Shown here: positions 6,447-7,855 of the stretch, piece after piece
How the letters are laid out: every line of letters begins with the position of its first letter
Position numbering within the stretch: the stretch's first letter is position 1
IMG/VR virus record: IMGVR_UViG_2526164634_000034
Span: 1-38,867 of that record
Strand: one strand, 5' to 3'
Length of the DNA: 38,867 bases
From: a virus
Lineage: Duplodnaviria; Heunggongvirae; Uroviricota; Caudoviricetes
Notes under the pieces: model-generated
Told to the model about the DNA's origin: nothing
Seen by the model: only the letters and a program-made list of their open reading frames with translations
Database searches by the model: none
Made by a program: the position numbers and the translations under genes

Positions 6447-6905
6447 CTATCTCCCGTGATTCAGGAAGTCGATTAGTTCTTCGCGTGTTGCGCTGTAAAA
6501 CGTCACGTCATCCACGCCTTTGAAGTATTTCTTGATGGTTCCTACACGATTAAGGCCAATCATTGCGCAGTACATCTGACCGTGGCGGAATTTGCGTGCA
6601 GCGAACGATGTGACGCACTGAACGGTGGTGTTAGTCAGAATGTATCGCCAGAACGCCAGCCCAATTTCCTTGCTGAATCCACGAACCTCTGGCAGGTACA
6701 TGGCGTGGCAATCAAAGGTTAGCGGCTGAATCTCCTGATAGTAAACAATTCCGCCGAACTGCCCGTGCACGTTCACCTCAAAGTAGCGGCAATCAGGTTT
6801 GTAGTCGTATCCATCACCGTTGTTGCTCCCGGCGATAATGTCAGGGTGATTTCCTACGGCTTCTATCAGGTCTATGTTTCGCGTTGGTTTGAACTGAATC
6901 ATCAC
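6447..6905 (-). CDS. gp14-like virion assembly/ejection-associated protein
   Basis: 152-aa ORF between the tail needle and gp7-like genes, as in the P22/Sf6 gene order. Confidence 0.55.
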
Positions 6906-7855
6906 TGCTCCGCGATTATCTTGATGGTTGTGGCAGTAAACGGCGCACCATTTGACTGAATGGTTAACGTACTGCCATTTGTGGCAAGAAAGCCGTCTTT
7001 ATCCACGCTGAAGAACGTAGCTAACAGGATGTTGTCGGTTGTTGTTGCCGCATTACGACTGCTAACCAGTGTGTCAGGAACAGAGCCGGAAAATGTTAGC
7101 TGCATTGATCTGTTAGCAGTTCCGCTGGGCCACGTCCCGACAATCGACAGCTTGAAGAACAAGGTTTTGTTCTCGTTGAAAACAACCATCTTGTTGTTAA
7201 CAGTGTCGAAGAATGGTGCCAACGTCCCGGATGACGGCGTGAGCGTTTTCAGCAGGCTAACAAGGTTGGTCGGCGCTGTTGGAATGGTTACCGATACTCC
7301 TGAGTAAACAACCTCTGATTTCTTGCGCGTGGTGGCATACTCAAGCGCAGATATTCTTGTTGAGTGATCACCAACTGTGCTTTGTAGTGTCGAAATACTT
7401 CCCTCTGCCGCTGTGAGCCTGGTATCAAGTGCGTCGATATCGGTTGTATTCTGAGTTATTCGCGCATCATGGTTTGCTAACTCAGATTCATTGGCAGCAA
7501 TTCGCGTCTCGTGATCAGCCAGCTCTGTTTCGGCAGCCGTAATCCTTGTTTCATGATCTGCAAGAGTGCTTTCCGCTGCTGCAATTCTATGTTCATGATT
7601 GATGAGAGTTGCTTCAGCAGCTTCAATTCTGGATTCATGGTCTGCAAGGGTGACATCCTGCTCATCATTCTTCACCTGTGCATCATAAGCCCCCTTCCCT
7701 GCTTCGTTGGCCTTGTTAGCCACGTTACCAACATCAGTGCCCTGTGCGATAACGTAAAGCAGATACGACTGCGAGAAGATATTGCGTGGAAGAACTGATG
7801 TATCGAGCCGCGTAGCCTGGATGATTACTGGCTCATTGAGATTCGAATCAGCCAT
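6902..7855 (-). CDS. Tail needle protein (P22 gp26-like) with extended C-terminal domain
   Basis: 317 aa; N-terminal [16 protein letters not shown]..., then five tandem 11-residue repeats ([11 protein letters not shown]-like) predicting a trimeric coiled coil; C-terminal ~150 aa extra relative to the 233-aa P22 needle. Confidence 0.75.

Follow-up and report, generated by a model that had tools for sequence, protein, structure and literature searches.

An HS1-type tail needle in a P22-like prophage, with a coiled-coil shaft of paired heptad repeats

The gene immediately downstream of the tail hub gene in the window (the whole 38,867-nucleotide stretch of DNA analysed, IMG/VR record IMGVR_UViG_2526164634_000034) encodes, with high confidence, the tail needle of a P22-like (Sf6/HK620-like, Lederbergvirus) prophage. 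The protein belongs to the HS1 subtype and would form a trimeric fibre of plug, shaft and knob in which heptad-pair repeats serve as the building blocks of the shaft; we saw nothing in the sequence that contradicts this reading. The initial annotation had described a needle with five tandem 11-residue repeats and a long C-terminal extension. The repeats are re-described here as paired heptads, and the extension is resolved as a known knob plus five extra heptads. The needle, the structure of its knob, its extra heptads and the effects of exchanging its tip have all been published before, and the protein is an ordinary HS1-type needle, which the refuting condition of the initial annotation would class as well characterised; with a published protein and an NCBI name in place, the discovery value is small. 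The features on which the argument rests are collected in Table 1.

Table 1. Positions of the needle gene, its parts, its neighbours and the insertion sequences in the window
Feature	Position	Strand	Evidence or remark
Tail needle gene, HS1 type, orthologue of P22 gene 26 / Sf6 gene 9	6902..7855	-	ORF listing and sequence
N-terminal plug domain, residues 1-60, predicted by homology to close the tail-hub channel	7676..7855	-	matches to 5BU5 and 2POH
Predicted shaft, a trimeric coiled coil over residues 61-172 with 15-16 heptads in unbroken succession	7340..7675	-	'a' positions, AlphaFold2
Five tandem 14-residue (42-bp) repeats, residues 69-138	7442..7651	-	identity matrices, autocorrelation, Tandem Repeats Finder
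Sf6-type needle knob, residues 173-317, predicted TNF-like jellyroll trimer	6905..7339	-	PF16532, 4K6B/3RWN
Tail hub gene, P22 gp10 / Sf6 gp8 homologue, upstream of needle	7855..9273	-	PF11134 Phage_stabilise, E=4.5e-297
gp14 homologue (DUF2824), downstream of needle	6447..6902	-	PF11039, E=5e-53; PHROG 651
gp4 homologue, upstream	9282-9764		
gp7 homologue, downstream	5752-6444		
gp20 homologue, downstream	4447-5742		
gp16-like DNA transfer protein, downstream	2450-4447		
Tailspike, further downstream, as is an Mnt/Arc-like repressor	41-2026	-	
IS10 copy in portal gene	12966-14294		402-aa DDE transposase at 12979..14187
IS1 transposase ORF, early region	29570-30073		
IS21-family istA/istB pair, early region	31592-33393		IstB-like ATPase 31592..32374; rve integrase-core transposase 32371..33393

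The reading frame is intact in the ORF listing, with 317 codons followed by a TGA stop, and NCBI already holds exactly the same protein sequence (WP_000785516.1 / EHX43616.1, named 'tail needle knob protein') in a 90% cluster of 1430 members that includes the E. coli HS protein. One 317-aa member of the cluster, P0125, is labelled 'predicted nucleic acid-binding Zn-ribbon protein' by JGI/IMG, which is evidently a misannotation of a coiled-coil protein. The needle matches PHROG 1030 'tail needle knob' and PHROG 1219 'tail needle protein', the latter at E=3e-59, and needle genes of the same 954 bp at 97-98% identity are present in 164 complete E. coli genomes as well as in the isolated phages vB_EcoP-720R6, JEP4 and Gally. 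Three further ORFs overlap the needle gene (6960..7307 and 7511..7798 on the plus strand, 7477..7668 on the minus strand); we set them aside as spurious, since near-identical homologues and solved structures are known for the needle frame.

The neighbourhood agrees with this assignment. The gene order gp4, gp10, needle, gp14, gp7, gp20, gp16 is that of the P22/Sf6 late operon, and the needle gene likewise lies between gp10 and gp14 homologues in Sf6, HK620, P22 and HS1. The initial identification as a tail needle is borne out by this position and by the match of the N-terminus to the P22 and HK620 gp26 structures. Both ends of the gene overlap a neighbour by one base, through TAATG with the gp10 homologue (7853-7857) and TGATG with the gp14 homologue (6900-6904), an arrangement characteristic of translationally coupled genes. 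Over its structural half, the window shares 96-97% identity with Sf6, HK620 and Gally. Two listed starts in this region are probably incorrect: the gp14 homologue is listed from a GTG (6447..6905), and the ATG at 6902 fits the 151-aa homologues; the listed tailspike ORF has 16 extra codons before the conserved start MSDITANVV, and the real protein is probably 645 aa. Elsewhere in the window, the nin region carries a Dam-family N6-adenine methyltransferase and a calcineurin-like phosphoesterase (23033-23587 and 21421-22086, both on the minus strand) together with NinG and the antiterminator Q, all ordinary lambdoid cargo.

At its N-terminus the needle is a close relative of proteins of known structure. 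Residues 1-79 share ~96% identity with the HK620 needle 5BU5 (E=1.8e-40 over that stretch), residues 1-137 align without gaps to the heptad coiled coil of P22 gp26 (2POH), and 3C9I also matches. The C-terminal knob anticipated in the initial annotation is likewise present. PF16532 'Sf6-type phage tail needle knob' matches residues 136-317 over profile positions 1-175 of 175 with E=9e-108 and 358 bits (Pfam gathering cut-off, 27 bits), and residues 165-317 are ~98% identical to the crystallised knobs of HS1 (4K6B) and Sf6 gp9 (3RWN). In an AlphaFold2 model, which is a monomer with low confidence in parts of the knob and was used for helix continuity and knob fold, a single helix spans residues 42-176 (pLDDT 88-98 over 61-160) and is followed by a beta-rich domain at 179-316. 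A Foldseek search with the model ranks 4K6B and 3RWN first (target-normalised TM-score 0.78), ahead of PRD1 P5 and TNF-family proteins. The residues that contact L-glutamate in HS1 (E181, K235, S283, D285, L290 and K312) are all found at the same positions, and the S266-R267-N268 triad is kept.

Between plug and knob lies the repeat array. Its unit consists of two heptads with the consensus x-L-A-D/N-H-E-x-R-I-x-A-A-E-x, and a sixth, degenerate unit occupies residues 139-152. The initial annotation placed five consecutive repeats at residues ~60-115; five tandem units do exist, at residues 69-138, but each is 14 residues long and not 11. At a lag of 14, 44 of 111 positions are identical, compared with 9.9±2.9 (maximum 22) in 5000 shuffles, whereas a lag of 11 gives 10 identities against 10.2 in the shuffles, which is the chance level. 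At the DNA level, 33-bp repeats had been described around 7470..7650; Tandem Repeats Finder reported only a single array with a period of 42 at 7529-7652. Even this DNA repeat is weak, with units sharing 16-32 of 42 bases (38-76% identity), and the array represents old, diverged duplications, not fresh repeats.

The hydrophobic pattern of the shaft follows the heptad throughout. Fourier power of hydrophobicity amounts to 82.5 at a period of 7 versus 6.2 at a period of 11, and to 22.6 at 3.5 versus 7.2 at 3.667. The best heptad register places V/I/L/M/F at 18 of 33 a/d positions compared with 8 of 31 for the best hendecad register, and none of the hendecad registers scanned is enriched in hydrophobic residues. 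Because the 7-residue periodicity dominates and no hendecad register emerges, the shaft is a canonical heptad coiled coil, 15-16 heptads long, in which every 14-residue repeat makes up a heptad pair. The 'a' residues recur once every seven residues with no break (L70, I77, L84, I91, L98, I105, L112, I119, L126, I133, I140, L147, I154, V161 and I168, with N63 as a possible further 'a' position before L70), and at the 'd' positions His alternates with Ala (or Asn or Leu), giving paired heptads with a Leu/His core and then an Ile/Ala core. Most repeat units contain one R-h-x-x-h-E motif; the motif starts at residues 76, 90, 104, 146 and 167. This motif reportedly favours trimers and may act as a trimerisation motif in the window needle.

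The closest studied relative is the needle of the HS prophage (HS1 tail needle EcHS_A0316, WP_000785558.1; PDB 4K6B), which is also 317 aa long, is identical to the window needle at 309 of 317 residues (97%) without gaps, and has the same five 14-residue repeats, 16-heptad shaft and gene neighbours. The published description gives the 317-aa HS1 needle a helical core of 16 heptads versus 11 in Sf6 and P22, an N-terminal domain sharing 98% identity with its Sf6 counterpart, and a knob (residues 167-317) that is 99% identical to the Sf6 knob, forms a TNF-like jellyroll trimer solved at 1.1 Å, and binds one phosphate (S266/N268) and three L-glutamates through the six contact residues listed above (Leavitt et al. 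2013, PMC3741392; PDB 4K6B); on gp26-like needles, that paper cites Bhardwaj et al. 2009. The window knob is the same knob, with all of the L-glutamate and phosphate ligand residues. Eight substitutions separate the two needles overall (window residue first). Six of them, E8V, K54Q, K62R, D100E, A107D and T138A, lie in the N-terminal domain and shaft; the knob has the other two, A269S and P305A. Residue 305 (codon 6941-6943), the sole knob position at which HS1 and Sf6 differ, is Pro in the window, Ala in HS1 and Ser in Sf6, and residue 269 is Ala in the window and Ser in both HS1 and Sf6. A 303-aa variant (P0010) shares both knob changes with the window needle.

More distant needles show where the lengths diverge. 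Sf6 gp9 (282 aa; 3RWN) has the same architecture and locus, with a plug and knob nearly identical to those of the window needle, but it has a shaft shorter by 35 residues (5 heptads), the distal part of which is of a different sequence type (QNESDISSLDTRVQSLESQVSDHET). The gp26 proteins of P22 and HK620 (233 aa; 2POH, 3C9I, 5BU5) are homologous in the plug and in the proximal coiled coil, where the LADHExRI heptad pairs also occur, and are encoded at the same late-operon position; their shafts are shorter, and their tip (about residues 141-233) is a different, unrelated domain and not a knob. Of the Sf6 and HK620 knobs to which an alignment was suggested initially, that of Sf6 is matched (~98% identity to 3RWN); HK620 has a P22-type tip and no knob. 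The window needle is 84 aa longer than P22 gp26 (317 versus 233 aa), as the initial estimate of ~85 aa had it. The surplus is a long C-terminal extension only in part: in the alignment with P22, HK620, Sf6 and HS1, ~32 aa of it fall in a longer shaft, and the other ~52 aa arise at the tip because a knob of ~145 aa replaces the unrelated 93-aa P22/HK620 tip. An engineered counterpart is also available in the elongated gp26 fibre (PDB 4LIN, 300 aa), in which duplication of helical-core heptads gave a longer fibre that aligns with window residues 1-184. 4LIN is man-made, whereas the natural HS1-type shaft is lengthened by different repeat units and carries a knob at its end.

Repeat number does vary among related prophages, as the initial annotation thought worth checking. 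Close homologues (73-98% identity) are 254, 268, 282, 289, 296, 303, 310, 317, 331, 338 or 345 aa long. Measured between the fixed anchors NDEQD and LEYATTRKK, their shafts are 40, 54, 68, 75, 82, 89, 96, 103, 117, 124 or 131 residues in length, and shaft length leaves the same remainder modulo 7 in 110 of 114 homologues. An alignment of 13 sequences shows hardly any variation in the plug (1-68) or the knob (164-317); all indels lie within the shaft, and those behind the length variants map to the repeat array. Two lineages can be followed, an HS1-type lineage of 268, 289, 303, 317, 331 and 345 aa and an Sf6-type lineage of 254, 282, 296, 310 and 338 aa, and both gain or lose shaft in blocks of 14 or 28 residues. 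The Sf6-type lineage expands a 28-residue unit, RIAQNESDIASLDTRVQSLESQVSDHET, which reaches up to three copies in P0050. Two events are exact at the nucleotide level. A single 42-bp deletion, exact and with a junction that falls within a short sequence common to units 3 and 4, CGCGA(A)T, sets a 303-aa variant (L005) apart from the window gene, and in a 345-aa variant (L006) the 84 bp of units 0-1 are exactly duplicated in tandem. Such an exact deletion and duplication are the signature that unequal recombination in register, or slippage, from one repeat unit to another would leave. Our literature search returned only a range of 11-16 heptads, and PMC3741392 contains neither the length ladder nor its mechanism.

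One reading of this ladder is that shaft length is tuned adaptively, with the number of heptads setting how far the needle reaches past the tailspikes to fit the thickness of the host O-antigen or capsule. We regard this as unlikely. It draws on the ladder itself, which steps by heptads from 254 to 345 aa among near-identical proteins through events that are in some cases recent and exact; heptad quantisation is expected anyway, however, since a coiled coil stays foldable only if changes keep the register. We therefore looked at the tailspikes encoded at 160 IMG/VR loci (L007-L166), 80 with 317-aa and 79 with 282-aa needles. A complete tailspike was found at 88 of the 160 loci, with 65 receptor-domain types, and its median length was 650 aa alongside 282-aa needles and 691 aa alongside 317-aa needles. 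The lengths of needle and tailspike are positively correlated across the 88 loci (Spearman rho 0.27, p=0.01), but the correlation is weak, involves two length classes only and is uncorrected for shared ancestry. Three tailspike types, including the window's own, pair with both 282-aa and 317-aa needles, and the single needle length of 317 aa pairs with tailspikes of 478-825 aa. A rigid coupling of needle length to tailspike type is rejected for the 160 loci, which show a weak, uncorrected trend only, and the sample neither excludes nor supports adaptive tuning of needle length by the tailspike. It is doubtful that the 42-bp double-heptad repeats constitute a built-in length-variation module (~7 to 20 heptads, a span of ~13 nm, with plug and knob otherwise invariant) whose reach selection matches to tailspike length or surface-layer thickness.

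How the needle would work can be sketched from its relatives; we infer every mechanistic step from the 97-98% identity of the window needle to studied needles, and trimer formation, channel plugging and ejection would all proceed as in those homologues. Three needle chains would combine into one fibre. The N-terminal ~60 residues of each would fold into a helical hairpin, and three hairpins would make a quasi-sixfold plug that seals the hexameric hub (the gp10 homologue) and holds the DNA in; cryo-EM of Sf6 has shown the N-terminal helical hairpins of its needle trimer forming a quasi-sixfold plug in the hexameric hub (PMC9728967). Residues ~61-172 would run through 16 canonical heptads as a parallel trimeric coiled coil, a shaft reaching past the tailspikes, and residues ~173-317 would form a TNF-like jellyroll knob with three L-glutamates bound at the subunit interfaces. 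During infection the needle would be expelled, opening the channel. Unequal recombination or slippage between 42-bp units would add or remove whole heptads, leaving the plug, the coiled-coil register and the knob undisturbed.

The tip of the needle would affect the speed of DNA delivery and would not act as a host-specific receptor binder. The opposite view, close to the role in host recognition first suggested for this knob, is that the knob is a host-specific secondary receptor-binding domain that sets which species or strains can be infected; its TNF/adenovirus-knob/PRD1 P5-like fold is of a kind that often binds receptors, it sits at the very tip of the virion, and at the time of study knob needles were known solely from phages of Escherichia and Shigella (PMC3741392). 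Experiments with P22 weaken this view considerably. P22 equipped with the Sf6 or HS1 knob has normal growth and yield on Salmonella, a foldon in place of the tip altogether still leaves the phage viable on Salmonella, with slower K+ release and tiny plaques, and tip exchange alters only the kinetics of DNA delivery; the authors themselves judged the idea of an essential, specific tip-receptor contact 'not completely correct' (PMC3741392). The knob is furthermore near-invariant (98-100%) and yet found with at least 25 tailspike receptor-binding types, which is atypical for a determinant of specificity. Taken with these data, a receptor-binding knob that sets host range is distinctly improbable. 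There is next to no chance that the repeats are 11-residue hendecads forming a non-canonical, near-straight or right-handed coiled coil unlike those of known needles, a reading that goes back to a visual impression only, its 11-letter string being a substring of the true 14-residue unit, and that is ruled out by autocorrelation, Fourier power and register counting and opposed by the gap-free alignment of residues 1-137 to the P22 gp26 heptad coiled coil.

Although the needle gene is intact, the genome around it appears to be that of a decaying prophage. An IS10 copy with IS10-like ends (CTGAGAGATCCCCTCATAATTT... and ...AATCATTAGGGGATTCATCAG) is inserted in the portal gene, and the 9 bp of the duplicated target, TACTTGGCA, border it at 12957-12965 and 14295-14303. 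The insertion cuts the portal in two, leaving one ORF at 14257..15684 that covers profile positions 2-404 and another at 12148..12966 that covers 400-594, so that the prophage is probably unable to make virions. Given the split portal and the two further IS elements in the early region, the needle may never enter a virion here, and the gene is probably not used for virion building in the window genome.

For the family, the heptad-quantised ladder of shaft lengths is a tidy, minor addition to what is known of these needles, and it lets a phage structural biologist ask whether needle length affects DNA delivery.
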